Shown in pieces: positions 11,741 to 49,182 of a stretch of DNA of 64,000 nt. The translations under genes and the position numbers were made by a program. The notes beneath the pieces were generated by a model. It did no database searches. It was not told the origin of the DNA and worked only from the letters and a program-made list of their open reading frames with translations. Source of the stretch: Cyanidioschyzon merolae (taxonomy: Eukaryota); assembly GCA_000091205.1 (NCBI GenBank), contig AP006492.2, one strand, 5' to 3'. The number at the start of each line of letters is the position of its first letter. Position 1 is the first letter of the stretch.

Positions 11741-12313
11741 ATGGGTGCGAACGCGTCCACTTTGCTGGACGACGATATAACAGAAATAGTGGCCTCGTCG
11801 TCTTTCTCGAAAGATGAAATCGAGCAACTGTATAGCCGCTTTCAAAAGCTAGACCGCAACGGATCCGGAACGATCGATGCTTCAGAGTTCCTGATGATTC
11901 CGGAGCTCGCCATGAACCCACTTGTGCCGCGTATTGTCCAGCTTTTTGACGGTGTTAACTTCAAAGAGTTTGTGCGGCTGCTCTCGGCGTTCGGAAAAAA
12001 CGCACCTCGGGAAGCACGGATTGACTTCTTGTTCCGCTTTTACGACGTTGATGGGGATGGGGTGGTCAGCGAAGCAGACGTCAACAGTATTTTTCGGTTG
12101 CTCGTTGGCGAAAACCTGGACGACGCCACCTTGCGACGAATCGTACGCCAGGCTATGCTGGACTTTGGCGCTGGCCTAGAAGCTCTGGATGGCGGAGACG
12201 AGAGCGAAGAGCTGAACGGCTGTAGCGTTCAGTGCCGACCGCTCACGAGAGAGGACTTCTGTCGAAAGCTTCAAAACGTCGAACTCGATCGCATTTTACA
12301 AATATCCGTTTAG
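11741..12313 (+). CDS. Calcineurin B-like EF-hand Ca2+-binding protein (N-myristoylation motif MGxxxS)
   Basis: MGANASTLL... start. EF-hand loops DRNGSGTIDASEF and DVDGDGVVSEADV. PELAMNPLVPRIVQLFD matches the calcineurin B PELQQNPLVQRVIDIFD block. ATG at 11741 confirmed in sequence. Confidence 0.75.
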   Translation: MGANASTLLDDDITEIVASSSFSKDEIEQLYSRFQKLDRNGSGTIDASEFLMIPELAMNPLVPRIVQLFDGVNFKEFVRLLSAFGKNAPREARIDFLFRFYDVDGDGVVSEADVNSIFRLLVGENLDDATLRRIVRQAMLDFGAGLEALDGGDESEELNGCSVQCRPLTREDFCRKLQNVELDRILQISV

Positions 12314-12668
12314 GACTTCATTCCGGTGACCGCATTCGCTATGCTTCGTCAATCGAGCAGGGCATGCACCCCCAGGAGCCGCCTACGTGGCTACGCCTCC
12401 CCGCTCATGCTCTCTTTTTCAAGGCGATATCATTGGTGACCAGGCGAGCTGGTGCGTGCCCAGTGGTGCGTATCCACGAATACAACGCGCGCTCTCTACA
12501 ACAGCGTCTAGCGGCAGCCTCGGTTGTGGTGCTTTCGGAGTCGGCGTGCGGCGTGCACGAGGCACTGTCACCCTTCAACAAGCTCAGTTTAGAGGAGCCT
12601 CACAGGTCTCTTGCGGGACCAAAGTTCAGAGCCGCAGTCTCGCGCACTGGAGGTCGCCTTCTCTCTCT

Positions 12669-12697
12669 GTGTGTGTATGTATGTGTGTGTGTGAGCG
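12669..12697. repeat. (GT)n/(GTAT)n microsatellite
   Basis: gtgtgtgtatgtatgtgtgtgtgtg. Shorter in paralogous copy at about 46269-46290. Confidence 0.8.
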
Positions 12698-13144
12698 ACG
12701 CACAGCGGCCTCGCGAAAGGACGCGAGACCCCGCTCTGCGTACATTTACCACAACGATGCGCCTTCCTCGACGAACGTACATAACATAGGGGCATGCTAG
12801 AGTCTCCAGCAGAGTCGTCCTCGCTTTACATTCCAAGGATGTGTACTGCCGTTACATCCATACGTGCGCAGCCGGTGATACCACAGCACGTCATCGTGCA
12901 CAGGCAGGCACACGAGCCGCTCTGTCTCGGGTCCGCAGCTGAGGCACTGTCGCCTCAGAGGTCCAACAGACGCGGATACCGTTCCGCAGCCGCAGAGCAG
13001 GTCGAGCGCCCCAGAGGCAGCGCAGCGGCAACTGCTCCGAGATGGAGCGCTCCTGATGATGCCCGCTACAGATCGACTGTTCAATAAATGAATGAATGGA
13101 ATGCCACCTGGTCGAAGATGTTGCCGAACGGTTCACTAATCCTG

Positions 13145-14821: not shown

Positions 14822-15546
14822 TGCTGTCGCAGCTGCGCTCGATGCTCAAGCACGCGCACGCGCCAGCGAGTACGGCCGCGATCGCGAACGCGAACGCGTG
14901 TGTCTACGACTAGGAGGCGCGCGCCCGTGTGCTTCAGCAGCGTACGCGCCTTTGGACAGCAGCAAACGCTGACCGGTCCCGCTCAAGCGCTGCGCGTTTC
15001 GCCAAAACGTATACACAAACGGCACGCACTTGGTTCACGAGCAAAGCGCTCTGCTCGGTGCCGCTCCAAAATAGTCTCCAGCAACCTCTCGGGGGCGTCT
15101 GCGCCCCAGCACGGCACGCGCAGCTCAGCAACGCCTCGCTCGACGGGGTCTCGCTCAGCCTACCGAGTTCAAGCACGGCTTAGACTAGCCTTGCCCTTGC
15201 TGTGATTCAGTCCTTGCTTTCCCTCGCCGCACTAGACTCAGACTCGTGCGGCACAGCTGCGCACCGTCACGCCGGGTCAAGCGCGCTCGATCGTGTCAGA
15301 GCCCGAGGCAAGCGTTCACACGTGTACACACACACAGACACAAACACACTGATGCAGACAATAAAAACAGTGATATCGACAGGACCAAACCAGAGATGCA
15401 CACACACACTTCGACCCTGTTTGGAATACACACAAGACGGGTGTTCCCCGAAATACTGCTACACTTGATTGTGTTGAAACGCGCCTTCACCGAATAATGA
15501 AATGCGCGGCATCGAGCAGCACGCATCGACGACGCGACAGCCGCAA

Positions 15547-15547
<1 letters not shown>

Positions 15548-15622
<75 letters not shown>
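15548..15622. repeat. (GCGT)n microsatellite, about 19 units, alternating purine-pyrimidine (Z-DNA prone)
   Basis: Tandem gcgt units seen directly. Paralogous tract at 49137-49181 has about 11 units. Confidence 0.9.
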
Positions 15623-15623
<1 letters not shown>

Positions 15624-15739
15624 ATCCATAGACCGCTCGCCTTCAGACGTAGGGCAGCGAGGCACCCGGTCGATGCGGATGCGTCACGCGGGGCAATGCG
15701 CGCCACCACGCATCGATTGCGCTGCCGCTGAGGCCTGTT

Positions 15740-15892
15740 GATGATGATGATGATGGTGATGATGGTGATGCTTGGGAGCGAGGCGGGGAGTCGCTGTGCT
15801 GCGTCGCCGACGCTGCTGGCTACACGATCGCGGGAGGGGGGGGGGTTTGTGTTGATGCTTCTCTCTCTCTCTCTGTGTGTGTGTATGCATCT
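15740..15892. repeat. Compound simple-repeat cluster: (TGATGR)n, G10 run, (CT)n(GT)n
   Basis: tgatgatgatgatgatggtgatgatggtgatg; gggaggggggggggtttg; ctctctctctctctgtgtgtgtgt. Lies upstream of the minus-strand P450. Confidence 0.85.
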
Positions 15893-16136
15893 AACATCGT
15901 GCAGCGTCCCGTAATGGCACCAGATGGTGCAGTCGACGGGGTACGCTGATTTCCCGCAGGCGATGCCCGACATTACGTAGTAGGAAGAATGCCCCACAGG
16001 ATATGCAACGCTTTGTTATTTTCGAACTCGACTGTGTATGACCTCGAGCGAATTGCAAGTACCCTCAATTGATGGAGATGTGGAAGGGAAAAATCATGCG
16101 GAAGGCTCGATTTGCGCATGATGCTCACGTTTTACT

Positions 16137-17936
16137 CAGATCAGAGAATTCCGGAACACACGTTCAAGTACATTATCTGAGACTATTTTACTTTCAGGTA
16201 CTCAGCAAACGGGACGTGTTATTCGGTTTGAGAAGCGGTCCTGGAAAGACTCTGTGCTGTCGCTGCTAGCTGGCGAGATAACGACATTACTGGTCCAAGT
16301 CGGTCACTCTACGCTCAGTAGGCGGATGAATCCTCTGTCCTCGTCGTCCGTGCAACGGATGCCGTGCACCCTACCCTGATCCTCGCAAACGCTGTCTATA
16401 CGGCTGCGCACTCACTCGACAACGCATTCTATAGCATACTTTTGCTGACCAGTTTTGTCAAAGAAGCGACAGGATATGAAGTTTCCGCTCTATTGAGACG
16501 AGCATTGATGAAGAGACACGAACTCGTACTAAGAAGTATGTTTCCGTATGCAGCTCTCGCCCGTTAAGCTTCGCTCGCTAAGCTTCCCCATGAAACACAA
16601 ACACCGGTTCCAGCAGGGACGGGGTTTCGTCTCACTGGATGAGACTGTTCTCGGAATAACCGGTACAGCTTTGTATCGGCATTCAGAGAGACGCGAGCTG
16701 CACTTCATACACAAGAGACAAGCTTGAATGGCGGCAGTACCGGTGCTTGTGGTGACGCAGCCGTTCAGTCGCCTACCAACGGCCAAACGAAAAGATTCGC
16801 TGATGGCCTCAAGCTTCGTGTGTGCCGACTTGCTCGCGCTTCCCTCGTCTCCCTCGCTGGGGCGCATCTCGTCGAGCGGCTGTTCGAGCGCGTTCCGTAC
16901 GCACGGCGGCCAGCTGTCCTTACCCGCCTCGACGTTCTCGATCAAACCTTCGTGCGGCAGCACAACGGCTGCTCGGGACACCATCGGCACCGCGACAGGA
17001 TTCTTCCAGAGCGCGGCATCATCGGGGCCCGGGCATCATGGACGCCAGGCGACATACCACAAAGTGGAATGACGGCATCAGGGCGCATCGCGACGCTCTC
17101 AGCGTCGTATTGTACTGTGCAGACGGTGATGCGTTTATGCGCGTTATTCAGAGAGCACACGAGCGTGCGACTGGCCTGTACAGACGATCGACGGCAGATG
17201 TGTCTGGCGCTGTGCTCGGATAGCCTGCAGTTTCGTCTGTGCGGAGGCCGGTAGTCTTGCACTCGGCACCTAGTCAAGCGGTTGTGGAAAGGGAATGACC
17301 GGCAAGTCGCGTCGTTGAGTGGTAGCCCACCGCGATGAACATCCTCCAGCAAACATCGGTTGCTCCAGTGCCCCGTCGAAGCGCGCCTCAAGTGAGTGCA
17401 GGCATCGATTTCGAAGGTCGTTCACTGACGCCCTCATGACGACGTACGCGCCTGACTAGAACATATGCATGCTGAAACCGGTAGAGCACACGAGCCGGGA
17501 CCAGCGTCGGATGCACGATACCGTGTGCGGTATGCTGGCCGAACGCCAGATGGCGAGGCAATCGAAGGCGAGAGGCTTGCCACCTTGGAACTGCACCAGC
17601 AACCAGGCGCGCAAGCACTTTTCTGTACCGAGACATGAACCTGTCGATCAGCATCCGGCAATGTTCCGTGCTCCCGGGGCGTCCAGCGGCTGTGGGTCGA
17701 GCGAACGTTCGATCAGTTCGTCTGGGACTGGGTTTGAGCACTGCCCTGAGGCGCTGAGCACTCTCGATGAGCAGAACCAGTGACCCAGAGACAAGGCATT
17801 GGATTGCTGCCCGAGGCCGGTCACTGGTATGGCACGTTCGGCAATCTAGAGCGGACGAAGCGGCGTGGATAGATACGCGCGGCATGGTATTCCCACGCAG
17901 TTGCTGAACAATAATCTCGTTTCATTAATCGATATA
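16137..17936. repeat. Inverted repeat, right arm (1800 bp)
   Basis: Mirror of 9707-11506. See left arm. Confidence 0.9.
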
Positions 17937-19586
17937 TCTACGGATATCGCGTAAAGTGTACAGCAAGTATTCTTGTTAATACCCGTGTCAGACTAACACC
18001 GAACGGGTCTACCTAATGAAACGCGCCTGCAAAGTTTCGAGACGCTTTCAACATCCATCAGCACCAGCTTCCGCGGGCTTTGTCTGCGACTGCTTCCTTT
18101 TCCTCTGTATTATTTCCAGCTTTTAGTATGTCAGACTCTCGCGTACCTGCAGCATTGCTGTCAGAAGTCGATGGATGATGATGATCGCGTACAAGTCCCG
18201 AGTTCCTAGTTTCCGTTAGTTGCCAACGGATTCGAGACTCATACGGAAGTTGCGATCTACGCTTCGCTTGCCATTTTCACCTTCTTTTCATAGAGTCATA
18301 CTGCTCCCTGCATAGTGATGAGACTTGCCTTGGACAGGTGTTCCCCCAAGTCCATCAGATCTCCTTGACTGAGGGCTATACTCTAGCGCACGAAAGCTTG
18401 CTTCGCCATTCGATACACGCCCTCTGGCGCGGCAGCGCGAACCCTCGATGCCACCCTCCGTCTGTGCACCCCGTCGTCGTAACCTAGAATCACAGGGGTT
18501 TCCTGGGTGATCCCATTAGCGAGTATGCTCTCTGCCACCCGTGCACGAGCACGCTCCCTCATTCGATGAAGGATTCGGGAAATGCGGTATTGTCCATGAT
18601 GAAACAAGAAGTACCGTTTGGAAAAATCTGGTCTCTACAAGGAGCAACGGAACTTCGATCCGTCTATGCTGCCATCTCGCAAAACAGTGACCCTCTCTCT
18701 AGTGAGTGTGTTTGTTGGAATGACTGAAGCTGGAGTTCAAGGCCCTTTTACGTGCAAGCAGATGAAAAGGGAGCCTCTTGGAGCAGATCCCGTGAGATCT
18801 ATAATGCTGCTCTCGGATGCTGCTGCGTCGATGAGCGCAACGAAAGGAGTGTATGTCCTGCGAACAGAGCCAATTATTCGATGTGAAATGTTCAGTAAAT
18901 TTTTGGTATGGGCTTGTGAAAAGGTCGTCAATAAACGAAGCGCAGCGGTTTTTGTGGTCACTTGGGCGGCATGAATCGCCGTGCCAACCGTTTGCCTTGA
19001 AACCAAAACGTTGAAAACTTGACGCATGCGTGATTCGAGCGCGCCGCACGTAGAGTAAAGAGAAGCATGGGGGCTTGTGCATGTGACTCAGATAATGAAA
19101 TCGATTATTTTAAGAACACTTGTTCCGGAGCATGGCAAATCATGGTCATTCCGGTGACGTAACAACTTCCAGCGGCGAGGCGTTGAGGAAGTCACCCCGA
19201 AAAGACGACCATTCATCGATGAATTAGGCGTAAAACGTATGCAGGTATTGCTGCACTCGGAATCTCGCGGCTTTATATCCTAAAAAATCTCGGGGAAATT
19301 TGAATATCGGGAACAGAGATACCAGGTGAGAGCTCCATGTAGGTCTCGTTAAGCTTTTGGGCAAGAATAACCAGGGTCCCGAGCGGCGCCTCCTTATCTG
19401 TCCGCGGGATCCTGCATATCAGCGATACCGCAAGTTCGAGCATTTAACTGCTCCACATTGTTTCTGGACGCAAGATCCCGTTGCGAGCCCACGACATGCG
19501 ACAACGACGGCAACAACGGCAATCAGCATTACCGCGACGAAGATCGGCACTGCCCTCGTCAGGAGTGATGGCACCTAGCTGCAAGT

Positions 19587-21761
19587 TCAAGCACGGAGGT
19601 CTGGTCGCTCTCGGCCAAGCTCCGAGACGATTCCACAATAGAGAAGAGCTGCGCGCCCAATATCTGCCACAAAACTCGAGGCAAGTTCCCCAACAGCTTG
19701 AACGTCTCCGTCATTGGGGGCAACGTACTTTTCTAGGTAAACGCGCAGGGTCGCATCCGCTGAACTTGTCCCGCTGAGCCGCAGAACGGCTCGCATCCTC
19801 CGATCAGATGAGAAAAACAACCGTACGCCCTGGTTTCGCGCCCAGGAGCCATCCACTGGATCCTGGTAATGAAATACATCCGCGGCATAGAGCTGTGGTC
19901 CATCGATACGCAAGCTGAGGATTTCGCCGCCTTCGACCGAGCGTTCTAGGTTGCGCATCCAGCGCTCGGCTGTGGTCCGTTCGATTCCGTGAAAATCCCA
20001 GCGCTCGTAATAGTTGCGTCCGTAGTGAGCCCAGTGTGCTCGAACAATATCCTCAACACTTGTGCTTTTCGATCCCGGAGCGACTTGGAGATTATGGTAC
20101 GCCAAAATTGACAGCCAAAAAAGAATAGCCCACAAACCATCTTTCTCTCTGATATGAGCCCCGCCCGCCCCGCAACTCTCCTCTCCGCATAGAGAGACCA
20201 GGCCCGCGTCGAGCAGATTGCAGAAATATTTCCACCCCGTGGGCGTTTCGTAGCACCTAATATTATGGCGTGAAGCAACGACGTCAACAGCAGAGCTCGT
20301 CGGCATCGAGCGAGCGACGCCTCGAATAAGGCCACCATCAAATCTGCAGTATGCGGCAAAATCCGGTCGAAGTGCGTAATCCAACATAATCGCCAGCGAG
20401 TCTGATGGTTGCACGACGAACTTACGCCCGAGAATAAGATATCGGTCACCATCGGCATCGGAAGCAGCGCCAAAGTCGGGTGAATCCTCATCGGAAAAGA
20501 ATTCGGCAACCAAGTCTGCCAAGTTCTCCAGATTAGGTTCCGGATGAACGCCACCAAAGTCGGGGAGATACTGACCCCGCCGGAACCAGGGATACTCCCA
20601 GTACCCGAGTTTTTCGCCAAAAATCATGAACGCAAACGGACCAGTCGATCCATACATCGCATCGTAAACCATGTTAAAGTTTGGGAGACGCAAGAGCGCT
20701 CTTAATCGTTCAAAATGAAATATACCTTCCATCAGCTCCACGTACGTTGCAGTGGCATCAACGAGGTGGATTTCAAAAGTCCTCCCGCCATCCGAGTGTG
20801 GGAGTCTGTCCGGATTCGGGGACTGGAGCGCATCGCGAGCGCCCTCCGGCAAGATCCGAAAACGGTGTACCGTTTGGATCCGTTTGAAATTGACACCGTC
20901 GAACCCGTCCCGGCCACAGAGCGCCTCCGGATCCGACGCCTCCACCTCTAAATATCTAGATATTGTCAAGGTTCTCTCGTAAATTAGGGACGTAAATGAG
21001 TCCGGCGCTGGACCACCGTTTTCCATATTGTACTTGACACCCCAGTCGCCATCAACACCGCCAGGGTTGTGGCTCGCCGTCAGGGCGATCCCGCCCAGGG
21101 CACCAGCAGCTCGAATCGCCGCACTGATAGCGGGCGTCGTAGCGATAGCGTCCGGTCCGAGCACGATCAGCCGCTGCAGGCTGTTGGCGGCAGCGATGCG
21201 GAGCAGTGTTCGAAGGGCAGCCTGGTTGCCCTCGCGGCCGTCGCCACCGACAACGAGTGTTGCCCGGTTGAGGCACGTGCGCCCGTATCGCTCGACCAGC
21301 ACATCGAAAAGGGATTGAAACCAGTTCTCGAAAAAGTTTGGTGTCTGTGTTACCTCACGTGTGCGCTTTCGTATGCCAGAGGTGCCCGTCTTCTGACCAG
21401 GTATCGGTGACGTTGGAACCTGGACAACGCACAGCGGTGTGCTTTCCTCGTACACGACGGTTTCTTGGTGGAACAGATCACTCCAGTCGATTGCAGAGCA
21501 TCGGATTTTGCTGCGTTCGAGTCTAGAGGTTTGATTCGGTTCCCGTTTGCCTGCAAACTTGCGGCGACGCCACGCGCTCTGGCACAAGTAAGAACTTGCC
21601 CTGGTTGGGTTCCAGTAGGTCCCGCGCGCCAGCGTTGCTCGTTTCGGCGTGTAGTTCACGGTAAACGCCAGGCACGGAAACCAGCCGCACTCACAACGAG
21701 GCGCCAATCTGCCGTAAGTTACGCAGTCCATCCCAGTGGATGCATCCTCGATTGAAACCAT
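19587..21761 (-). CDS. Phosphoglucomutase (alpha-D-phosphohexomutase superfamily) with N-terminal extension
   Basis: 724-aa ORF. Active-site loop TASHNPGG, GQKTGTSGIRK phosphoserine region, and characteristic PGM blocks (FGAASDADGDR, GEESCG). About 125 extra N-terminal residues rich in R/S/T/C. Confidence 0.85.
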   Translation of the reverse strand: MVSIEDASTGMDCVTYGRLAPRCECGWFPCLAFTVNYTPKRATLARGTYWNPTRASSYLCQSAWRRRKFAGKREPNQTSRLERSKIRCSAIDWSDLFHQETVVYEESTPLCVVQVPTSPIPGQKTGTSGIRKRTREVTQTPNFFENWFQSLFDVLVERYGRTCLNRATLVVGGDGREGNQAALRTLLRIAAANSLQRLIVLGPDAIATTPAISAAIRAAGALGGIALTASHNPGGVDGDWGVKYNMENGGPAPDSFTSLIYERTLTISRYLEVEASDPEALCGRDGFDGVNFKRIQTVHRFRILPEGARDALQSPNPDRLPHSDGGRTFEIHLVDATATYVELMEGIFHFERLRALLRLPNFNMVYDAMYGSTGPFAFMIFGEKLGYWEYPWFRRGQYLPDFGGVHPEPNLENLADLVAEFFSDEDSPDFGAASDADGDRYLILGRKFVVQPSDSLAIMLDYALRPDFAAYCRFDGGLIRGVARSMPTSSAVDVVASRHNIRCYETPTGWKYFCNLLDAGLVSLCGEESCGAGGAHIREKDGLWAILFWLSILAYHNLQVAPGSKSTSVEDIVRAHWAHYGRNYYERWDFHGIERTTAERWMRNLERSVEGGEILSLRIDGPQLYAADVFHYQDPVDGSWARNQGVRLFFSSDRRMRAVLRLSGTSSADATLRVYLEKYVAPNDGDVQAVGELASSFVADIGRAALLYCGIVSELGRERPDLRA

Positions 21762-21855
21762 GCACTCCCTGGGACGTGCACCCGTGCGGCTCGCCCGCAG
21801 CTGCTGCTACAGAGTGCAGCGAATGAACGCGTAGTCTACAAATCCCAGTACGCGT

Positions 21856-22908
21856 TTACGACTTGTCGATCCGAACGCCGTTCGAAATTCGAACGACGCC
21901 AGCAGTACAGTAGTGGCGAGAAGCCCGACCTAGACTAGTCGTCATTAACCAATGTGCAGACGTCCTCGTCTTTTTCGACCGGCCCCCGCTACTGCTCCCT
22001 TTTTTCTCATATAGTTCCACTTTGAGAGATTGTCCAGCAAAGTTCGCGCTTGTCCAATCTGGTGGTCTCTCCTCCAGCACCGCACATCTCCTTATATTGA
22101 TGGCGGCGTTAGAGTCACGATTCACAAACTCCATCCGTTTCTTGCCATCACTGGTTGCACTTACTAATGCAAAGAGTCCACGAACTTTCGCCCTCCTTTC
22201 CATTTGCTCTTCTGTTAGCAGTCCGTACTTTGCTATATCCTCAGGGCTCCTCTGGCACTTTTCCATCTCGACTCTCTGAAGTGTACAACCCAGCTCGTGG
22301 TGTGTGTAGGACGTTCGGAACTCATCTACAGGTATCGTGACGAAACGCCTTGTGCACTCCTTGTACAACCTTGTCGTTGGAGCTGGTGTACACCCTTTTT
22401 GAATCTTCCATCGCCCTGCTGCGTACGCTACTACGAGCCTTTGAGTCTTGTCCTCTTTGAGGGCACTCAACTGATTGAAAAAGTTGGCGAACGCCTGCTG
22501 CTTACCACAATACAGATTCATTCGCAAACGAGCCCATCGGGGCTTTGTATACTCCTCCCAGAGTGCATCCCAATGGGCAACGCGAACTTCCATAAATTTC
22601 CGAAAAGCTTCAAAGTCCGCACCTCGGCTCGTCATCTCGCCCAAAGCTTCCAGGTGATCCTTCATTCCTGAATTCCAAGTCTCGATTTTCTTCCTCGCAT
22701 TCATTATACCGGATTCTCGATAGTATCTTGCTCTCGAGAACCTCATCAGACGCATGTCTTTCTGACGTAAGTTACCATCAGCGCCATCTTCTGCACGCTT
22801 CGGTGCTGCGATGGTTGTGATATTCGTATTCCCAGGGTCCGCGCCACCGACAAAGTCGTTATCTTGCACTTTCTCGGTCACAGGACCCGCCCTCCTTCTT
22901 TTCTTCAT
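21856..22908 (-). CDS. Fanzor/TnpB-like RuvC endonuclease, C-terminal catalytic half (RuvC-I, RuvC-II, Zn-ribbon remnant, RuvC-III)
   Basis: RuvC-I: [27 protein letters not shown] (GxDxG...DG). Bridge block: [29 protein letters not shown], where TnpB has LeYKa..G..v..Vdp.yTSq.C. RuvC-III: [14 protein letters not shown], where TnpB has DaDvNAAiNI. Zn-ribbon reduced to H/C remnants. Canonical RuvC-II Glu position reads VVAYAAG. Confidence 0.55.
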
Positions 22909-23075
22909 GCTTCACCGCGTCAATGGCAAGGTAGTCATCCTGCACCACCGGCGTCGCAGGATCCGCCTCCTTCTCATCTTCATCCTTCGCCGCGCCGACG
23001 ATAAGGTCGTTATCCTCCACCTCCTGCATCACAGAATCCTCCTCTTTGTTTTCTGCATCCCTCGTGACGGGCGCG
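22850..23075. repeat. In-frame 66-bp (22-codon) tandem repeat inside Fanzor-like ORF, about 3 units
   Basis: Units encode ..[24 protein letters not shown] / [25 protein letters not shown] / [21 protein letters not shown]. The last unit runs into the RuvC-I motif. Copy 2 has 4-5 units (33545-33835). Confidence 0.75.
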
Positions 23076-24584
23076 GCCGAGGGCGGATCTGGACGATCTT
23101 TCTTCAACCGCCGATAGAGTACACACGTGGCTACTCCATCGGTTTCGATCAACCCAGCAAATACCTTTTGTTTGCTGACTTTGAGACGTTTGAAGTCGAA
23201 GATACTCTTCCAGTACGTCTCCCGGTTTTCACCGATGAAGTCCTCCCTGCTCACATCGAACTCCGGACAGATCTCCCTCATGATGCCGTAAAGGACGCCT
23301 GAATCGATAGTCACGAAATGTGACTTGATATTGCACATTGGAACGCCGTTGAAGCGCTTACCCATTAGGAAAGCCTTCCGTCTCTCCCACTCTTGATTTG
23401 TCTCTTCACTCAGCTTCATCTCCGCTTCGCGTTCGAGCTCTCGGTCCAGAAACACGAAATATCACAGGATGAGGCGGTAGTATCTTTCCTTATCTTTTTT
23501 CAACTCTGATCAATTTTCTGCCAAATTCGCCAGCCCCAGGACTGCACGATACTCTTGGATAGCCGCACGGATTACAGAAGCTTCATTTGCGCTCCTGCGT
23601 GACGCCTTCTTATCGACAAACTCGATCTCAACTTCATACTTGCGATCTTTCATGATGCCATTGATAATCGCCCATTTTCCGTTGCGAGCGATGCCCGGGT
23701 AGAGTGTACCCACCGCGCGTATCATAAAACGTTCGAGGTTCACTGTCAAATGGTTCTTCAGACTCGTGGTGTACTTTTTCGCTCCGTATGCCTAAATATC
23801 CGAGGCACCCCTGTATCGATTACCTTCGAAGCGGAATTCCACCAAGTTTTCGTGGAGGGCGTGCACTAGCACATTTTCCTTCAGCGCTTCCGCTGTGCCA
23901 AGCATCAGGTGACGAATAAACGTCTTGTCGAAAAACTCGTCAGGAATCTCGACTGTTTCCGTGTGCGTCACGTCGCGATACATCTCCCTCACCAAATGCA
24001 TCAGTACTGACGACGCCTTGACAATACTCTTGGAGTACGAGTCGACATGGTTTCTGATAGCGTCTCGCAACTTTTCGTTGCACGGATCCTTGATATGTTT
24101 AAGAAGGAAGGTTTTCACCACCATCTCGTCGTAAAGTCGTCTTTGTTGCAGCCTTCAACGTAGGGCCTCCCCTTTCGGTTCTTCTTCTCTCCCTTTTCTT
24201 CTGGACTCGGCACTGTTTTTTGTTTTTTTTTCTGGCAGCCGGCGACCCTGGGCCTCCAGGATCGTGGACTTGCTTTTTCATAGCTTTCCTTTTTTAGTTT
24301 TTTTTTGAAAAACAACGCTCTGTGAACGCTTCTGTTATATACTGCGAAAAAAAACTTGAACACACTTGTTTGAGGTTTGAAAGAAAAATGAACTAAAAAA
24401 CTGTACTCTGCTAAGACCTTAACGGAAATCCAATTTTTCCAGTAGAACAACACGCTACTGATCAGGATCGCGTTTCCCTTCAACGGCGGCATTCGCATCG
24501 TGTCAGTAGACTGGCCGATCTCCGAGGTATCTCGGCGTCGATCTGGTCGTGGTGAGCAAAACGCCGGGTACAAAAACACCGATA

Positions 24585-27500
24585 ACAAAACAAACTAGTC
24601 GCAAACTATTTATTAAAGAACAACTATCTTAAAGACCCACACACCACGCCCGCCTTAGAGGTCTAGTTTTTCCGGAGAAGCTCTGAAAGTGGGTTAACGC
24701 GGGGTGCTTGGGCGACGGCGAAGGAAGCCCACGCCAGGGACCTTGACCGCAACGAACGGAGGGGCGGCGGCAGTAGCACCAGAAAATGTTGACGAAAATC
24801 CTGATTAGTCATCCGCCCCTCCCGAATCAACGCTGCAGGTTCGGGCGCAAATCTTGGATCGATCCTCGGACTCGGGCTCCGTTTTACCTCCTACCTTGGC
24901 TACCTACCTCAACTTTGGGAACAATTTCGGCGGATACTTTGGAAGACGGCTGGCAGTATGTTCACTGTCGAAGCTGGAATAAGCGGCTTGCCCGCCTATG
25001 TGTTTGGGGAGCGGATACGTAGCCGCTGAAAGGGTGGTTTGCAGACTGTTCCCAATTGTTGAGGGGAGGTTAAAGCGTCGGGCAAGATAAAGGTCGCATT
25101 CGAATCGACCTTGACTAGCGTACATCTGATTCTACGCTAGCGCTGCGGCAGACGCTCAATGAACGACTGGAATGCAGGAGGCGCTGGTGGCATGTGCGAT
25201 CACACACGCCATGGAGGGTGCATCTCAATCGACAACGTATCTCTCGAGTACCGCAGCGTTAATCCTATTCCCTTATGCGCTACGACTCGATAGGTTTCGC
25301 ATCATGGAATATTTGTGGGATCGCCTCGGTATTGAACTACGAGATATCGAATTACCAGTACAGTAATGAAGAACTGATACAAGTCGAGGACTGTACAAAA
25401 GGCAAAAGAGACCCAACCAGACACGGAGAAGGAGACACAGAAACCTCATGATCCACCTAGATGCAAAATAACCAGAGAATGTAGCTCAGGAAAGAACCCG
25501 ATGAAGAAGAAAACCAACAAGAGAAAAACAGAAGAATAGGAAGAAGAACTCCCGAACGAGTCCACAGGCGGGGGCTCCAGCGAACCCATCACAAGTCGTC
25601 CCCGAAAGAGCACCCCAGCAGGAACTCAAGAAAGCCGTCGCCAAACCGAGTCACCTACTCACAGCGCTGAAGATCCGAAAAGCCGTGCATACAAATCTTT
25701 AGACCAATTGGCACGCGAGTTTGTAGATGGGAATCAGAAGTTGCCGGAGAGCTGGGACTGCTTGCACCAGAACGCAACAGTTGCAAACCTCAGTGCCTGA
25801 AACGACGTACCAATACCCGGATTGACGAGCGCCACCGACTCTATCAGATCGTCAACCACACCGCCATACGCGCCAACGCTGGAGACAAGGAAGCGAAGGC
25901 AGTCCTAACGGCGCTACAGGCACAACATGAAGAAGCTATCAAAAGAAAGAAGAAACTTTCCAGAGAAGACAAACGAGAGGATCGAAACCGCAAAATCGCC
26001 TCCCTAGCGAAATCTATGCTAGAGAGCACCAACGAAGATGAGACCTGGCGCTACATTCGATCGAGACTGGACCCACCAAAAAAGTGCTTGGGGCTCACAC
26101 CAATCGTTTATGAGGAAGTGCTGAGGACGGAGCGTGCCTCAGTGAATGAGGCCTGGACGGACCACGGCACAGAGCTGCATGAAGACGCAACTGGGAACTG
26201 CCAAGACAGAATCTATTGGCACCAGTATGCCGCAGAACTACCGCGCCTCGAACCGGTACCGGAATGGAACGACCCAATCTTCTGGCCTGAATCTGTTCGG
26301 ACCGTGCTATGCTCAAGCAACCGCAAAACACCTGGCATCGACGGTATCGCGGCGGAGTGGATGAAACTGGTGATCCCAAAAGACGGGACAAGAGGGACAC
26401 TATCGATACCAGATGAACCTGACACAAGCTTAGGCAAACGCCTTGTGGAGCTCATCCAACGCATGTTCGAAGAGGCGTACATCCCGGATTTATGGAGGAC
26501 TGCCGAGGTCGTACCGATCCTCAAAAAGGACTCCGACGTACACAAACACAGACATGAACAACTACCGGACTATTCGCCTCATCCCGTCAATCATGAAGCT
26601 ACTTTGCGCCATTCCCACGAACCGGACTCAGAGAGGCCTCGTGGAACGCAAGTTCTTCGCCCCAGAACAGGCTGGATTCCGGAGCCACGAGGAGTGCATG
26701 AGCCATGCCCTGACCCTAACTGAAGTGGTGCAACGTCGCTCCATTAGCGGCCAACAACCAGCTTACGTATGCTTCACCGACTTTCAAAAGGCCTTTGACA
26801 CGGTCCCGCACGAGGCTCCATTTCTCAAGATGGAACGAGCCCAAGTCTCCGGAAAGTGCTTAGCGTTCTTCCGTGCGCTCTATGCAGACTCATGGATGCG
26901 CATCCGACTGGGCGACCGCTCAAGAACCCCTTCCAGAAGAATCCGCCGTGGACTGCGGCAGGGCGAGCGCGCATCCCCGCTCCTTTTCAACATCTTCATC
27001 AACGATCTGCTGAACAACTGCAGACAATACGGGCTTGAGGTGCCGTGGATAGACTGTGGAGATACCCGATGAGGAGCTCTCACATAGGAACCGCCTCGCA
27101 GGCCGTCTAGTTGCGGACGATGTCGTGCTGTTGGCACCCGCCCCGGAAACGCTTGCGGGTAGCATGGAACAAGTCAGCGCCCGGGCCGATCGCTGGGAGA
27201 TGAGCATAGGAGCATCGAAGTGCGGCGTCATGGTCATCCATGGAGACTCGCAGAGCATTCGCAATCGCTCGTGGCGGTTGCAGAATCAGGAAATTCCGAT
27301 CGTGGAAAAATATCGCTACCCGGGGGTCTGTCTAACGCCGACGCTCGACGAAGAGGCACACGTCGACGAGATGATCGCCAAGATGCATAGACGTACAGCG
27401 ATCGCACGTCCATTCCCATCCGACCCCTCTATCTGCATAGCAATTCGTACCAGGGCACGAAGGATGTGTATCATCCAGCCTGCGACCTGGGGTGCTGAGT

Positions 27501-28878
27501 GGTGCGGCATGAACCACACAAATGCCTCACGTCTGCAGATAGCCGCCAACATGGCAATGCGACTCGTTGTTGCTGTTGGATGCTCAATGTAGAGCAGAGC
27601 AACCACCGCGCTGGCACTCGGACTTGAACTCCAAATAGCCTCGACAGAGGCGACAGCAGCAGGTTGCCGGGCACGCATATGGGGCAAAGGGCCAACTATG
27701 AACACCTGGTTCGATCGGATATCCATGCAGACCCCAACGCACCGCAAGAACACTTGGATGAAATCGACGCAGATTTGGCTGAAGCGCCTCTTAGGGGACA
27801 ACACGCTCCCCAATCGTTCCCCAGGAATGTAGAAGACTTCAGACGCCTCAAGCGAACGGTCCAAACAACAATTTGGGAACGTAGACACGGAACCAGTCGC
27901 GCCAGTAACGCCGGCTTAACTCTATACCGGAACTACAACCTAGCATACACATGCAAGTACTGGTGGGAGGCGCTGGAATTCCCGGGACTTGCTCGAGGTA
28001 CCCAGTGGCTCGCCAAAATCCGCGTTGATGGCTTCTGGCTAGCGGCACCGGCTCTAAACCATATAGGGACACTGGAATCGCACTGGGAGTCACACTGTCC
28101 CTGCTATCGAGACGAAATCCCCGAGACGCTGACATATTTAGGCTTACAGTGCCCGCGCTGGAAGCAGGAGCGCAGCGAGCTCCTTGAAGGACAGCAGCAG
28201 CTGGGCATCACCATGATAGCCGAGGGCCGGACATTCACTTTGAGTGCAGCACTGGCAACTGATGGTCCGCTAACAGATCCTCAGTGCTCATTAGTGGCCA
28301 ACAAACTCACATGCTACGTTCTAGGCATGAGGTCCAGCGTATCGGATGCGCACACGGGCCCAGTGCGCTTTCTGCGCCCACCTTTTGTGGTGGGTGTCAA
28401 GCACAAATCCGCATTTCCAACCGACGACAACGCATTCCATGCATGATCACGAAGGAGAGAGGCGGCTCCCACGATATATCCTAACAGTCAAGTTTCTCCA
28501 GCGTGTCGTGCAGCGAAGGCAAGCCTGCATCCGCAGACTGTCCGAGCACAAACTGACGACGAGACTCGATTCTACGTCGGGTGAAGCACACCTCGAGCCG
28601 ACGCCCTTTGTGGTATAGAAAAGCCGTTCTGTCTCCATGATGCATCTGTACCAAAGGTAAAGACGCTATTGCGGATAATTAGGACAGGTTCTGGGCACAC
28701 GATAGGACGTATGAGATGACCAGAATATCTGAGACGAAGTATAGGTAATGGAACTTGGGAGTAGCCTGTTTGATGGATACTTCACGGCGCACTGAAAAAA
28801 AGAGAAAAAAGTAAGAAAAGAAAAATGCGCGTGATCGGAGAACGCTGGCCTAAGTAAACGTTTTGTCAACGAAAAAAC
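24585..28878 (+). mobile_element. Non-LTR (LINE-like) retrotransposon, copy A, degenerate (frameshifted)
   Basis: RT motifs across three frame segments (26016-26723, 26443-27072, 27056-27592): NYRTIRLIPSIMKLL, FRSHEECMSHAL, QGERASPLLFNIFINDL, LVADDVVLLA (FADD-box variant), CGVMVIHG. C-terminal Cys/His domain HCPCYRDEIPETLTYLGLQCPRW at 27664-28446. A-rich 3' tail region. No apurinic-endonuclease domain recognisable. Confidence 0.8.
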
Positions 28879-28926: not shown

Positions 28927-29144
28927 GCAATCGCCGGAAAGCTCTGCGCCGCTGCAATCGCCGGAAAGCTCTGCGCCGCTGCAATCGCCGGAAAGCTCTG
29001 CGCCGCTGCAATCGCCGGAACGCTCTGCGCCGCTGCAATCGCCGGAACGCTCTGCGCCGCTGCAATCGCCGGAAAGCTCTGCGCCGCTGCAATCGCCGGA
29101 AAGCTCTGCGCCGCTGCAATCGCCGGAAAGCTCTGCGCCGCTGC
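28927..29144. repeat. 27-bp minisatellite, about 8 units (gcaatcgccggaaagctctgcgccgct)
   Basis: Seen directly. Immediately 3' of LINE copy A. Absent at the equivalent junction of copy C. One frame reads RRAFRRLQR repeatedly. Confidence 0.9.
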
Positions 29145-29221
29145 AGGCGCGCCGGCCAGAGCGCTCTCCATAGATCCGTAACTCTTATTTTGCGTGTGCA
29201 GAGGCTAGAGCGGTACGCTGG

Positions 29222-32504: not shown

Positions 32505-32575
32505 AGCGTCCCATACCTCCGATGCTCGGGTGCTTCAAGTGCACGCACACCGCCACCGCCACCGCCTTTTACACT

Positions 32576-33896
32576 CGAACGACGCCAGCGGTGTACAGTA
32601 TTGGCGAGAAGCCCGCCTTGGACAAGAAGTTTTCAACTGCGGTGTAGACGCCTCCCAGCCCTTTTGCATCGGCCACCTACTACTGCTTCCAATCTTTTCT
32701 CATATAATTCCACTTTGAGAGGTTGTCCAACAAAGTTCTCCCGTGTCTACTCTGGAGGTCTTTTCTCCAGCACCGCACATCTCCTTATATTGATTGCGGC
32801 ATTAAAGTCTCGGTTCACAAACTCCATACGTTTCTTGCAATTGATTGTACTTCCTAATGCTAGTAGCCCTCGCACTTTCGCCCTCCTTTCCATTTGCTCG
32901 TCTGTCAGCGGTCCGTACTTTGCGATTTCCTCAGGGCTCCTCTGGCACTTTTCCATCTCGACCCTCTGGAGTGTACAGCCCAGTTCATGGTGTGTATAGG
33001 ACGTTCGGAACTCGTCTACATGTATCGTGACGAAACGCCTTGCACACTCCTTATATGTTTTTGCCGTTGGAGCTGGCGTGGTCCCTTTTTGGGTCTTCCA
33101 GTGTCCCGCTCCGTACGCTACTACTAGCCTCTGATTTCCATCCTCCTTCAGGTCACTCAACTGATTGAAGAAAATCGCGAACGCCCGCTGCTTACCAAAA
33201 TACAAATTCATTCGCAAACGAGCCCACCGGGGCTTTGTATACCGCCCCCCACAGCGCATCCTAATGTGCCATGCGAAATTCCATGAATTTCCGAAAAGCT
33301 TCAAAGTCGGCTCCTCGGCTCGTCAGCTCGCTCAAAGCTTCAAGGTGATCTTTCATTCCTGAATTCCATTTCTCGGTTTTCTTCCTCGCATTCATGATTC
33401 CCGATTCCCGATTGTATCTCGCTGTCGAGAACCTCAAAAGACGCATGTCTTTCTGACGCAAGTTGCCGTCGGTACCATCCTCCGCGAGCTTGGGCACAAC
33501 GATGGTTACGATATATGTGTTTCCGGAGTCCGCGCCAACGACAAAGTCGTTCACATGCACTTTCTGTAGGGCAGGATCCGCCTTCTTCTCATCTTCATGC
33601 TTCGCCGCGTCAACGACAAACTCGTTATCCTGCACCTTCTGTGTCGCCGGATCCGCCTCCTTCTCATCTTTATGCATCGCCGCGCCAACGATAAAGCCGT
33701 TATCCTCCACCTTCTGCGTCACAGGACCCGCCTCCTTCTCATCTTTATGCATCGCCGCGCCAACGAATAGGTCGTTATCCTCTGCTTCCTGCGTCGCAGG
33801 ATCCGCCTCCTTCTCATATTCATGCTTCGTCGAGGGCGCAGCAGAGGGCGGGACTGGACGATCTTTCTTCAACCGCCGATAGTGTACACACAAGGC
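32576..33896 (-). mobile_element. TnpB/Fanzor-like element, copy 2: 5'-truncated, frameshifted, premature stop (pseudogene)
   Basis: ORFs 33261-33893 and 32747-33304 share about 88% amino-acid identity with copy 1 (VGADSGNTYIVTIV, RLYKEC-like block, [14 protein letters not shown]). Trp->stop after RPPE. Abuts the LINE copy at 33897. Confidence 0.55.
33545..33835. repeat. 66-bp in-frame tandem repeat inside Fanzor-like copy 2, 4-5 units
   Basis: Repeated [29 protein letters not shown] units in the translation. Confidence 0.75.
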
Positions 33897-36800
33897 TACT
33901 CCATCGGTTTCCTGGTTCCGTGTCTACGTTTCCGTATTGCTGTTTGGACCGTTCGCTTGAGGCGGCGGGAGCCTTGTACATTCCTGGGGAACGATTGGGG
34001 AGCGTGTTGTCCCCTAAGAGGCGCTTCAGCCAAATCTGCGTCGATTTCATCCAAGTGTTCTTGCGGTGCGTTGGGGTCTGCATGGATATCCGATCGAACC
34101 AGGTGTTCATAGTTGGCCCTTTGCCCCATATGCGTGCCCGGCAACCTGCTGCTGTCGCTTCTGTCGAGGCTATTTGGAGTTCAAGTCCGAGTGCCAGCGC
34201 GGTGGTTGCTCTGCTCTACATTGAGCATCCAACAGCAACAACGAGTCACATTGCCATGTTGGCGGCTGTCTGCAGACGTGAGGCATTTGTGTGGTTCATG
34301 CCGCACCACTCAGCACCACAGGTCGCAGGCTGGATGATACACATCCTTAGTGCCCTGGTACGAATTGCTATGCAGATAGAGGGGTCGGATGGGAATGGAC
34401 GTGCGATCGCTGTACGTCTATGCATCTTGGCGATCATCTCGTCGACGTGTGCCTCTTCGTCGATCGTCGGCGTTAGACAGACCCCCGGGTAGCGATATTT
34501 TTCCACGATCGGAATTTCCTGGTTCTGCAACCGCCACGAGCGATTGCGAATGCTCTGCGAGTCTCCATGGATGACCATGGCGCCGCACTTCGATGCTCCT
34601 ATGCTCATCTCCCAGCGATCGGCCCAGTCGCTGACTTGTTCCATGCTACCCGCAAGCGTTTCCGGGGCGGGTGCCAACAGCACGACATCGTCCGCAACGA
34701 GACAGCCTGCGAGGCGGTTCCTACGTGAGGGCTCCTCATCGGGCATCTCCACAGTCTATCCACGGCACCTCAAGCCCGTATTGTCTGCAGTTGTTCAGCA
34801 GATCGTTGATGAAGATGTTGAAAAGGAGCGGGGATGCGCGCTCGCCCTGCCGCAGTCCACGGCGGATTCTTCTGGAAGGGGTTCTTGAGCGGTCGCCCAG
34901 TCGGATGCGCATCCATGAGTCTGCATAGAGCGCACGGAAGAATGCTAAGCACTTTCCGGAGACTTGGGCTCGTTCCATCTTCAGAAATGGAGCCTCGTGC
35001 GGGACCGTGTCAAAGGCCTCTTGGAAGTCGATGAAGCATACGTAAGCTGGTTGTTGGCCGCTAATGGAGCGACGTTGCACCCATCAATGAGGGTCAGGGC
35101 ATGGCTCATGCACTCCTCGTGGCTCCGGAATCCAGCCTGTTCTGGGGCGAAGAACTTGCGTTCCACGAGGCCTCTCTGAGTCCGGTTCGTGGGAATGGCG
35201 CAAAGTAGCTTCATGATTGACGGGATGAGGCGAATAGTCCGGTAGTTGTTCATGTCTGTGTTTGTGTACGTCGGAGTCCTTTTTGAGGATCGGTACGACC
35301 TCGGCAGTCCTCCATACATCCGGGATGTACGCCTCTTCGAACATGCGTTGGATGAGCTCCACAAGGCGTTTGCCTAAGCTTGTGTCAGGTTCATCTGGTA
35401 TCGATAGTGTCCCTCTTGTCCCGTCTTTTGGGATCACCAGTTTCATCCACTCCGCCGCGATACCGTCGATGCCAGGTGTTTTGCGGTTGCTTGAGCATAG
35501 CACGGTCCGAACAGATTCAGGCCAGAAGATTGGGTCGTTCCATTCCGGTACCGGTTCGAGGCGCGGTAGTTCTGCGGCATATTGGTGCCAATAGATTCTG
35601 TCTTGGCAGTGCCCAGTTGCGTCTTCATGCAGCTCTGTGCCGTGGTCCGTCCAGGCCTCATTCACTGAGGCACGCTCCGTCCTCAGCGCTTCCTCATAAA
35701 CGATTGGTGTGAGCCCCAGGCACTTTTTTGGTGGGTCCAGTCTCGATCGAATGTAGCGCCAGGTCTCATCTTCGTTGGTGCTCTCTAGCATAGATTTCGC
35801 TAGGGAGGCGATTTTGCGGTTTCGATCCTCTCGTTTGTCTTCTCTGGAAAGTTTCTTCTTTCTTTTGATAGCTTCTTCATGTTGCGCCTGTAGCGCCGTT
35901 AGGACTGCCTTCGCTTCCTTGTCTCCTGCGTTGGCGCGTATGGCGGTGTGGTTGACGATCTGATAGAGTCGGTGATGCTCGTCAATCCGGGTATTGGTAC
36001 GTCGTTTCAGGCACTGAGGTTTGCAACTGTTGCGTTCTGGTGCAAGCAGTCCCAGCTCTCCGGCAATCTTCTGATTCCCATCTACAAACTCTCGTGCCAA
36101 TTGGTCTAAAGATTTGTATGCACAACTTTTCGGATCTTCAGCGCTGTGAGTAGGTGACTCGGTTTGGCGACGGCTTTCTTGAGTTCCTGCTGGGGTGCTC
36201 TTTCGGGGACGACTTGTGATGGGCTCGCTGGAGCCCCCGCCTGTGGGCTCGTTCGGGAGTTCTTCTTCCTATTCTTCTGTTTTTCTCTTGTTGGTTTTCT
36301 TCTTCATCGGGTTCTTTCCTGAGCTACATTCTCTGGTTACTTTGCATCTAGGCGGATCATGAGGTTTCTGTGTCTCCTTCTCCGTGTCTGGTTGGGTCTC
36401 TTTTGCCTTTTGTACAGTCCTCGACTTGTATCAGTTCTTCATTACTGTACTGGTAATTCGATATCTCGTAGTTCAATACCGAGGCGATCCCACAAATATT
36501 CCATGATGCGAAACCTATCGAGTCGTAGCGCATAAGGGAATAGGAGTAACGCTGCGGTACTCGAGAGATACGTTGTCGATTGAGATGCACCCTCCACGGG
36601 GTGTTTGAGAGCACATGCCACCAGCGCCTCCTGCATTCCAGTCGTTCACTGAGTGTCTGCCGCAGCGCTAGCGTAGAATCAGATGTACATTAGTCAAGGT
36701 CGATTCGAATGCGACCTTTATCTTGCCCGACGCTTTAACCTCCCCTCAACAATTGGGAACAGTCTGCAAACCACCCTTTCAGCGGCTACGTATCCGCTCC

Positions 36801-37226
36801 CCAAACACATAGGCGGGCAAGCCGCTTATTCCAGCTTCGACCGCAAACATACTGCCAGCCGTCTTCAAAAGTCTCCGCCGAGACTATTTCCAAAGTTGAG
36901 GTAGGTAGCCAAGGTAGGAGGTAAAACGGAGCCCGAGTTCAAGGATGGATCCAAGATTTGCGCCCGAACCTGCAGCGTTGATTCGGGAGGGGCGGATGAC
37001 TAATCAGGATTTTCGTCAACATTTTCTGGTGCTGCTGCCGCCGCCCCTCCGTTCGTTGCGGTCAAGGTCCCTGGCGTGGGCTTCCTTCGCCGTCGCCCAA
37101 GCACCCCGCGTTAACCCACTTTCAGAGCTTCTCCGGAAAAACTAGACCTCTAAGGCGGGCGTGGTGTGTGGGTCTTTAAGATAGTTGTTCTTTAATAAAT
37201 AGTTTGCGACTAGTTTGTTTTGTCTT
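33897..37226 (-). mobile_element. Non-LTR retrotransposon, copy B (3'-truncated), same family and same frameshifts as copy A
   Basis: ORFs 35084-36100, 34981-35364, 34736-35080 and 34246-34752 mirror the copy A segments at about 95% identity. The 5' end matches copy A at 24585. Lacks the last about 1 kb of the element. Confidence 0.8.
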
Positions 37227-49136: not shown

Positions 49137-49137
49137 A

Positions 49138-49181: not shown

Positions 49182-49182
<1 letters not shown>

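Follow-up and report, generated by a model that had tools for sequence, protein, structure and literature searches.

Assignment of a decayed Fanzor1 element and a truncated second copy to the known CMe-1A family of Cyanidioschyzon merolae

A decayed CMe-1A copy and its truncated companion

We analysed a 64,000-nucleotide stretch of Cyanidioschyzon merolae DNA (hereafter the window; all coordinates are positions in it) for the element that lies on its minus strand between 21876 and ~24540. We assign this element with high confidence to the CMe-1A family as an old, pseudogenised copy (copy 1), and the stretch at ~32575-33911 as a truncated second copy (copy 2). The protein of the family, CMe-1 (734 amino acids, aa), is a Fanzor1 member of the TnpB/Cas12 superfamily. 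The family is already known: its description and the deposition of its sequence date from 2013, nothing is added here on the biology of RNA-guided nucleases, and neither copy provides a usable gene. An earlier note on this DNA had proposed a TnpB/Fanzor element with a RuvC nuclease at this site, and the proposal is borne out by profile and fold matches to solved Fanzor1 proteins and by three motifs that fall on catalytic positions, as described below.

CMe-1A is the sole Fanzor1 family listed for C. merolae (Bao & Jurka 2013, Mob DNA 4:12, PMC3627910). It counts ~150 copies, which are ~80% identical to a consensus of ~3 kb (PMC3627910); the consensus measures 3169 bp and encodes the 734-aa CMe-1 protein in one exon (PMC3627910, Additional file 1), and the consensus DNA and protein are given in Additional files 2 and 3 of the same paper. 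The element is without terminal inverted repeats (TIRs), its target site duplications (TSDs) were not determinable, and over the 635 bp at its 5' end it shares 95% identity with TE-N2_CMe, a non-autonomous element (PMC3627910). Some copies are still intact, and the coding capacity of the family was remarked upon as unusually long-lived (PMC3627910).

The two copies in the window and their reading frames are:

21876..24540, minus strand: copy 1, body of the Fanzor1 element, consensus ~655/687-3169 (blastn, global alignment)
21930..24281, minus strand: decayed Fanzor1 coding sequence (CDS) of copy 1, with the ancestral ATG at 24281 and the ancestral TAG at 21932-21930
21856-22908 (350 aa), 22859-23455, 23510-23749 and 23792-24124, minus strand: open reading frames (ORFs) of copy 1, read from the sequence
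32575..33911, minus strand: copy 2, 3' fragment of the element, consensus 2040-3169; the 3' coordinate is approximate because the 3' end is degenerate

The assignment is carried by DNA similarity. When the CMe-1A consensus was compared with the window by blastn, consensus positions 687-3145 matched copy 1 at 21897-24504 with 85-87% identity, and positions 2040-3145 matched copy 2 at 32583-33911. Global alignment of copy 1 with the consensus gave 86.8% DNA identity over 2.47 kb, tblastn gave 74-84% amino-acid identity spread across two frames, and the motif strings read in copy 1 are the same as those in the deposited CMe-1 protein and DNA. Searching with the protein brought up 267 close homologues at 66-98% identity, a multicopy family that occurs mostly in hot-spring metagenomes. 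Given that number of homologues and the 85-87% DNA identity over 2.5 kb, the observation is far beyond the reach of chance. Copy 1 and CMe-1A have in common the organism, the motif strings, the single-exon layout and the 3' end. They differ in that copy 1 lacks consensus 1-686, in place of which it carries the 5' part of a retroelement with a Pfam RVT_1 domain, in opposite orientation, and in that copy 1 has an extra 75-bp repeat unit, stop codons and frameshifts. DNA similarity within the same organism thus places both copies in the family, and a full-length structure with the 5' 635-bp TE-N2_CMe-like module is found in neither of them; we read both as family members in variant or truncated form.

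An element does lie at the site indicated by the earlier note, but its limits had to be redrawn. Comparison of 36 copies puts the 3' terminus at 21876 and not at 21856, and comparison of 43 copies puts the 5' limit of homology at ~24540. The ORF that ends at 21856 overruns the end of the element by 20 nt because of late frameshifts. The series of minus-strand ORFs was found at all four coordinates previously listed. The frames at 23510-24124, which had been taken for the N-terminal part, are among them, but the ancestral ATG lies farther upstream, at 24281, within an ORF (24099-24281) that is now out of frame.

Copy 1 is broken at many points. Relative to the consensus, its CDS shows a change of +2 at consensus position 956 and of -1 at 1014, an extra in-frame 75-bp repeat, a 76-bp insertion consisting of one 75-bp repeat plus 1 bp, which produces the frameshift at 22859-22908, and deletions of -2, -1 and -2 near the 3' end. 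In window coordinates the frameshifts fall near 24230, 24170, 22890 and 21990-21950. The overlap of two ORFs at 22859-22908 had been suspected of being a true frameshift, and it is one: a 1-bp insertion near 22890, visible as an extra G near 22891, shifts the frame between ORFs 22859-23455 and 21856-22908. The nonsense mutations, placed relative to the two "gaps" that the earlier note saw between frame segments, and the tandem repeat are:

23792..23794, minus strand: in-frame TAG, TAC (Tyr163) in the consensus, in the first "gap"; the homologue P0039 reads DIYDYGAM there
23512-23510, minus strand: in-frame TGA, GTA (Val257) in the consensus, bounding the second "gap"
23464-23462, minus strand: in-frame TGA, CGC (Arg273) in the consensus, bounding the second "gap"
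22878..23064, minus strand: 75-bp (25-aa) coding tandem repeat, 2.5 copies, before RuvC-I (Tandem Repeats Finder, TRF, and consensus alignment)

With its three nonsense mutations, four or more frameshifting indels, Gly570 mutated (see the next section) and the published 5' module missing, copy 1 is a pseudogene. Neither in copy 1 nor in copy 2 did we find an uninterrupted frame or demonstrable introns.

The earlier note had held that copy 1 might be intact, and so possibly an active Fanzor gene, if its segments were joined by the splicing of mini-introns of 42-54 bp. The segments are indeed collinear and contain all the motifs, and some Fanzor genes elsewhere are reported to have acquired introns. 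Such a gene is nonetheless very improbable here. The "gap" stretches correspond base for base, with no length difference, to coding sequence of the single-exon consensus, and to coding sequence of intact homologues, the only changes being point changes to stop. Across the second "gap" (23462..23512) homologues are continuous, reading EKVSELKKDKERY..LILRYFVF, and P0039 runs uninterrupted through both (DIYDYGAMKC and EKVSELKKDKERYCLLILRYFVF). The supposed introns are moreover in frame with the neighbouring segments, so that what looked like segments separated by gaps is a single reading frame split by single stop codons only, i.e. coding sequence with nonsense mutations. Even if these stretches were spliced out, the ORF would remain broken by the other frameshifts listed above. 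The scarcity of introns in C. merolae counts, too, against mini-introns in copy 1.

The 25-aa repeat (KHEDEKEA..QDNDFVVGA-like) varies in number: it is present in ~1 copy in the consensus, 2.5 in copy 1 and 4 in copy 2 (33530-33829), and in higher number in some metagenome proteins (loci P0014 and P0020). In the AlphaFold model described below, the linker equivalent to this region has a predicted local distance difference test (pLDDT) score of <50.

Copy 2 retains only the C-terminal 40% of the gene. A second, diverged copy had been pointed out in the earlier note, and two ORFs (32747-33304 and 33261-33893) together with the consensus match at 32583-33911 agree with this. Copy 2 contains four 75-bp repeat units (TRF) and a +1 frameshift, and its codons 520, 692 and 730 are stops; it is cut off exactly where copy B of the retroelement starts (33912), at consensus position 2040.

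Both copies preserve a trace of past constraint. Substitutions relative to the consensus, sorted by codon position, amount to 9.7/9.4/18.7% in copy 1 and to 8.2/9.1/21.2% in copy 2. Since third-position substitutions are twice as frequent, most of the divergence accumulated under purifying selection on the protein, before decay set in, in agreement with the long-lived coding capacity noted by Bao & Jurka. Among 80 metagenome loci, two have an ORF of >700 aa with all three motifs (L005, 747 aa, and L003, 722 aa). The insertion itself is found again in a Yellowstone hot-spring contig (L010, Ga0078972_1021873), with the same 3' flank and at ~90% identity to window 21826-25884; this shared flank makes the insertion older than the split of the 10D lineage from a Yellowstone lineage, so that the pseudogene is common to Cyanidioschyzon lineages that are geographically far apart.

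Fanzor1 fold, catalytic residues and the zinc finger

Membership of CMe-1 in Fanzor1 was established with profiles and models. An exhaustive HMMER search with the homologue P0039 collected 1138 relatives at E<=1e-3, many of them 600-700 aa long and 30-45% identical. An alignment of 34 diverse members of this set from metagenomes and genomes, 26-40% identical to the query, served as the profile (A2). Run against the PDB with hmmsearch, A2 matched PpFz1 (Parasitella, 9cf0) with E=6.9e-21, SpuFz1 (Spizellomyces punctatus, 8gkh) with E=1.1e-13 and GtFz1 (Guillardia, 9cer) with E=6.7e-5. In these alignments DPG is paired with IDPNKRD, VDEFRTT with LLDEYKTS/LIDEFRTS, and NRD with NRD. The AlphaFold2 model built on A2 has a pLDDT of 79.5 and a predicted template modelling (TM) score, pTM, of 0.73. 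When it was compared with the PDB by Foldseek, the top seven matches were all Fanzor1 structures, the best being SpuFz with E=5.6e-15 and TM 0.64 over ~600 columns; after Fanzor1 came Cas12 variants and ISDra2 TnpB. AlphaFold2 and Foldseek thus agree on an RNase-H-like RuvC core in a Fanzor1-type fold. The layout of CMe-1 is that of a basic N-terminus, a helical REC/WED-like half, a disordered linker with the variable 25-aa repeat, and the RuvC domain. The N-terminal frames of copy 1, for which WED/REC-type helices had been suggested, are modelled by AlphaFold2 as the REC/WED-like helices of a Fanzor1 protein, and the basic stretch at the N-terminus looks like a nuclear localisation signal.

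The catalytic positions map onto copy 1 as follows:

22837..22839, minus strand: RuvC-I Asp codon in GADPGNTN (consensus D431), Asp in 34/34 A2 relatives; aligns to IDPNKRD of SpuFz1
22420..22422, minus strand: canonical RuvC-II site in VVAYAAG, Ala in copy 1 where the consensus has Gly570; Gly in 34/34 A2 relatives
22321..22323, minus strand: relocated catalytic Glu codon in VDEFRTS (consensus E603), Glu in 34/34 A2 relatives
22114..22116, minus strand: RuvC-III Asp codon (consensus D672), Asp in 33/34 A2 relatives; aligns to NRD of SpuFz1 and PpFz1

RuvC-I, then the LYKE block, then RuvC-III had been read in TnpB order, and all are indeed inside the 350-aa ORF. E603, aligned with LLDEYKTS in SpuFz1 and with LIDEFRTS in PpFz1, lies 33 residues downstream of Gly570, the canonical Glu site. 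In the published Fanzor rearrangement, Gly or Pro takes the place of the canonical Glu, and its loss is compensated by another Glu, essential for cleavage, ~45-50 residues downstream. The CMe-1 subclade, judged by these columns, has the published Fanzor-type rearranged Asp/Glu/Asp (D/E/D) triad. The earlier caution that VVAYAAG at the canonical RuvC-II Glu site is no proof of inactivity was therefore well placed: the site is Gly in all 34 relatives and the compensating Glu lies in VDEFRTS.

A number of results pull the other way. When the four window ORFs were searched singly against Pfam, nothing significant was found (Cas12f1-like_TNB, E=0.78); six long homologues gave no Pfam match, and phmmer with the consensus protein alone found nothing in the PDB, so that homology to Fanzor1 is visible at the level of profile and fold only. 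In addition, the Cys4 zinc finger that Bao & Jurka (2013) place between [TS][TS]-x-x and RD in their defining motif is absent. Within A2, the segment from Glu to RD contains 0-3 Cys and a CxxC in 1/34 relatives, and CMe-1 itself reads HHxxxC...C. As CMe-1 was classed as Fanzor1 by the very authors of the motif, we treat the absence of the finger as a subclade-specific loss. What is conserved in the subclade is D/E/D and RGLLWC, and three of the four zinc-finger Cys of SpuFz1/TnpB are gone in A2. The Cys4 finger has thus degenerated across the whole CMe-1 subclade, in line with the degenerate zinc ribbon described in the earlier note. Weak Pfam matches to Cas12f1-like_TNB were found in 13/34 A2 relatives (best E=5.6e-5), scores that fit a degenerate zinc-finger/TNB domain. 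A further Pfam tag carried by some homologues, PF26935 (DUF8286), was marked weak, received no score in the Pfam scan of homologues and was set aside as uninformative.

Comparison with characterised systems gives the same picture. SpuFz1, PpFz and GtFz share with CMe-1 the fold, the DPG, [DE]E[FY][KR]T[ST] and NRD motifs, and a Glu relocated in like manner (SpuFz1, PDB 8GKH/9CEU-9CEZ), but their identity to CMe-1 is just 13-17%. SpuFz1 retains a CxxC...Cx4C zinc finger, whereas the CMe-1 subclade has none, and in the model of CMe-1, unlike in these three proteins, a helical insert separates the Glu from the RD motif. Bacterial TnpB (ISDra2, PDB 8H1J) and Cas12f share the RuvC core with weaker Foldseek matches (E=0.07-0.9); in contrast to them, CMe-1 is much larger, has its Glu rearranged, lacks both the zinc finger and a TnpA partner, and resides in a eukaryote. 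The Fanzor1 protein VCa-2 of Volvox carteri (Bao & Jurka 2013) carries the RuvC-II signature of the subclade, VIVAYSAVKF...VPTSRASKEC..VTFPVDEFR (BLASTP E=2e-16), but is partial, comes from a green alga and is 26% identical.

That the motifs are a chance resemblance in an unrelated repetitive protein, as the non-significant single-sequence Pfam and PDB searches might suggest, can be dismissed as next to impossible against profile matches to three solved Fanzor1 proteins (down to E=7e-21), a fold match with TM 0.64 over ~600 residues and invariant catalytic columns. The earlier note had named three outcomes that would speak against a Fanzor element, namely no profile match, no RuvC core and motifs lying off the catalytic sites; none of them came true.

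The CMe-1 subclade thus combines an invariant D/E/D triad with the lack of a finger that has a structural role in TnpB, Cas12f and SpuFz1. Intact copies are few; they, such as the 747-aa and 722-aa ORFs from thermoacidophilic Cyanidioschyzon populations, are candidates for a natural zinc-finger-less and possibly heat- or acid-tolerant Fanzor.

We infer RNA-guided cleavage, and the place of the omega-RNA, from characterised relatives. By analogy with SpuFz1, PpFz1 and GtFz1, an intact CMe-1 would bind an omega-RNA made from the 3' end of the element that encodes it and, by homology, would cut matching double-stranded DNA beside a short motif. Sequence just past the 3' end of the element would supply the guide, as in SpuFz1, ApmFz2 and other Fanzors, and the basic N-terminus would serve nuclear import. 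Neither copy in the window is capable of RNA-guided cleavage, given its lesions.

The 3' end of the element is constant (...CGTTTTTCTTTTGAAAGGCG) and holds the following feature:

21876..21930, minus strand: 3' untranslated end with two adjacent hairpins, the last being CGTTCGA-ATT-TCGAACG (per-copy folds)

When the last ~55 nt were folded copy by copy, most of the 36 copies gave two hairpins (mean z -1.8). In Fanzor and TnpB elements the omega-RNA scaffold ends at this position, so that the hairpins could belong to such a scaffold, but they could also, or instead, be a signal for transposition. The nuclease activity of intact CMe-1-subclade copies is here an assumption, and several results on the 3' end count against the RNA-guided mechanism sketched above. 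Covariation of a hand-drawn two-hairpin model is weak (80% of cells paired, a score reached by 17/500 shuffles). RNAalifold on the last 270 nt of the 36 copies gave an unconvincing structure of -4 kcal/mol with 13 pairs, mostly long-range. Rfam returned no family for 21500-25000, only a sub-threshold snoRNA match by chance. Folds, covariation and Rfam thus did not demonstrate an omega-RNA at the 3' end of the element.

The 3' flanks of the 36 copies (equivalent to window 21875-21872) mostly read TT(T/C)G, the first two bases being T in at least 90%. Either the consensus is ~4 nt too short for the element or the element prefers a T-rich target.

The neighbouring retroelement and the mode of movement

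On their 5' side both Fanzor copies are abutted by an RVT_1 retroelement, which is present three times in the window:

24585..28877, plus strand: copy A, RVT_1 (Pfam E=7.8e-17), head-to-head with Fanzor copy 1
33912..37223, minus strand: copy B, inverted duplicate of 24585-27896 (self-BLAST, 97.8% over 3313 bp)
61968-64000, minus strand: third copy (copy C), matching 26851-28877 (self-comparison)

The three copies are 93-98% identical and their ORFs are all fragmented; homologues in C. merolae are annotated "retroelement, alive". Copy B cuts off Fanzor copy 2. In two copies (A and C) the 3' end of the retroelement is ...GTAAACGTTTTGTCAACG with AAAAAA after it, and the flanks diverge from there on. 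The element thus has an RVT_1 domain and an A-rich 3' tail, which are features of retrotransposons without long terminal repeats. No endonuclease domain was found in its ORFs or in its homologues, all of which are <=362 aa with RVT_1 only. A 27-bp tandem repeat (8 copies, 98% identity, 28927-29145) lies directly downstream of copy A.

Sequence shared with this retroelement is present in CMe-1A itself. The published 5' end of CMe-1A (CGATGACAAAACGTTTAC...) is the reverse complement of the A-tailed 3' end of the retroelement: consensus 1-30 and 84-282, reverse-complemented, match the 3' end of copies A and C. Since the 5' end of CMe-1A is the retroelement tail reversed, the T-runs that precede CMe-1A copies are an A-tail on the other strand. 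In the 80 metagenome loci, elements that start at consensus ~1 and elements that start at ~646-689 each make up about half. The homology common to all copies sets in at a palindrome, GCGCTC(A/G)GTGAGCGC, equivalent to window ~24540 (loci L002-L081). Upstream of this palindrome there are at least four alternative 5' modules, with one constant 3' end:

5' module 1: antisense TE-N2, the published form
5' module 2: antisense 5' part of the retroelement, in window copy 1, L001, L015, L016 and L064
5' module 3: sense retroelement tail followed by A6-8 and GAATC, in L017, L039, L046, L056 and L075
5' module 4: a fourth shared module ("X")

Three configurations, at independent loci, join the Fanzor body to the tail of the retroelement or to the retroelement 5' end. 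CMe-1A, so far unclassified, looks composite, which bears on how Fanzor1 elements without a transposase move.

We considered how this structure may have arisen. One proposal, which we put forward tentatively, sees the Fanzor1 gene as a hairpin-bounded module of ~2.5 kb whose propagation is tied to the RVT_1 retroelement family. In its fuller form, which we likewise consider rather doubtful, the Fanzor body would travel with this family or be copied by it, 21876-28877 would be one 7-kb composite, and CMe-1A would be its internal-deletion derivative. The match of the left end of CMe-1A to the A-tailed retroelement 3' end, with flanks that diverge after AAAAAA(C), argues for this, as do the variable-length T-runs before CMe-1A copies and the lack of TIRs and of determinable TSDs in the published description. 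The same junction between retroelement 5' part and Fanzor body also recurs with different flanks (L016, L064 and L001 versus the window), internal-deletion variants retain both ends (L016, L003/L004), and the sense tail with A6-8 and GAATC abuts the body in the five loci of module 3. Against it, copy B ends exactly at the equivalent of 24585, where it is adjoined by a host gene and not by a Fanzor body, and the retroelement therefore has a 5' end of its own. Joins are found in both orientations, for which an A/T-rich hotspot that received repeated insertions is the easier explanation. A search for TSDs that covered CMe-1A copies as well as the 7-kb composite yielded nothing beyond T/A runs, and neither an endonuclease domain nor a long intact reverse transcriptase ORF was found. 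Lastly, the 3' end at consensus 3169 is sharp in nearly all copies, an outcome that random 5' truncation of an antisense retro-transcript would not give. If the link to the retroelement holds, CMe-1A could be, to our awareness, the first Fanzor carried or copied by a retrotransposon instead of a DNA transposon, and it would also represent a zinc-finger-less Fanzor1 subclade with >1,000 metagenome relatives.

A second proposal, for which our confidence is low as well, is that the ~2.5-kb Fanzor body is a non-autonomous single-strand element of the IS200/605-like or Helitron2-like kind. The 5' palindrome and the 3' hairpins would then be its ends, insertion would be T-rich, and the 5' modules would have been acquired by end-bypass or chimera formation, a scheme that we regard as possible but unlikely. 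Helitron2 elements have hairpins at both ends, that is, a 5' hairpin and a 3' hairpin, together with asymmetric terminal inverted repeats (PMC3627910). Homology among CMe-1A copies begins at the GCGCTC(A/G)GTGAGCGC palindrome and ends after two hairpins, at least 90% of copies have T at the first two positions of the 3' flank, and the pattern of at least four 5' modules with one 3' end is also seen in other Fanzor1 carriers (PMC3627910). Yet no asymmetric terminal inverted repeat could be seen by eye between the ends, covariation of the 3' hairpins is weak, and CMe-1A was left unclassified in the very paper that defined Helitron2 (PMC3627910). Nor was a RepHel/TnpA-like gene seen in the window, in which no search was aimed at RepHel. 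What remains beside a link to the retroelement and a single-strand element is that independent elements were nested at an A/T-rich hotspot.

Solo TE-N2_CMe-like modules also occur in the window, at 56704-57286 and 40720-41285 (both minus strand); they match CMe-1A consensus 2-581 and 4-562 with 78-84% identity. Shorter TE-N2_CMe-like fragments at 28576-28764 (minus strand) and 62082-62285 (plus strand) lie inside the 3' region of retroelement copies. This suggests that TE-N2_CMe is a non-autonomous partner that shares the retroelement tail.

Locus and other repeats

Seven long ORFs of the window are identical to C. merolae 10D proteins within BAM80368.1-BAM80383.1, including CYME_CMJ281C. The contig with these proteins measures 839,707 bp, and the CMJ locus tag suggests that the window lies on chromosome 10. 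The gene that adjoins Fanzor copy 1 is:

19587-21761, minus strand: phosphoglucomutase gene

Two further duplications were observed. The first is a direct segmental duplication of 3.7 kb (12312-15984 and 45916-49540, 98.2% identical), which carries paralogous genes of cytochrome P450 family 710 (BAM80373.1, 558 aa, and BAM80381.1, 556 aa). The second is an inverted duplicate pair of 1.8 kb (9696-11506 and 16137-17947, 98.9% identical). Each of its arms contains a heavily decayed and far more divergent Fanzor1-like RuvC remnant, at 9928-10698 (minus strand) and 16945-17715 (plus strand), which is 32-47% identical at the amino-acid level, in pieces, to relatives of CMe-1 such as P0212.

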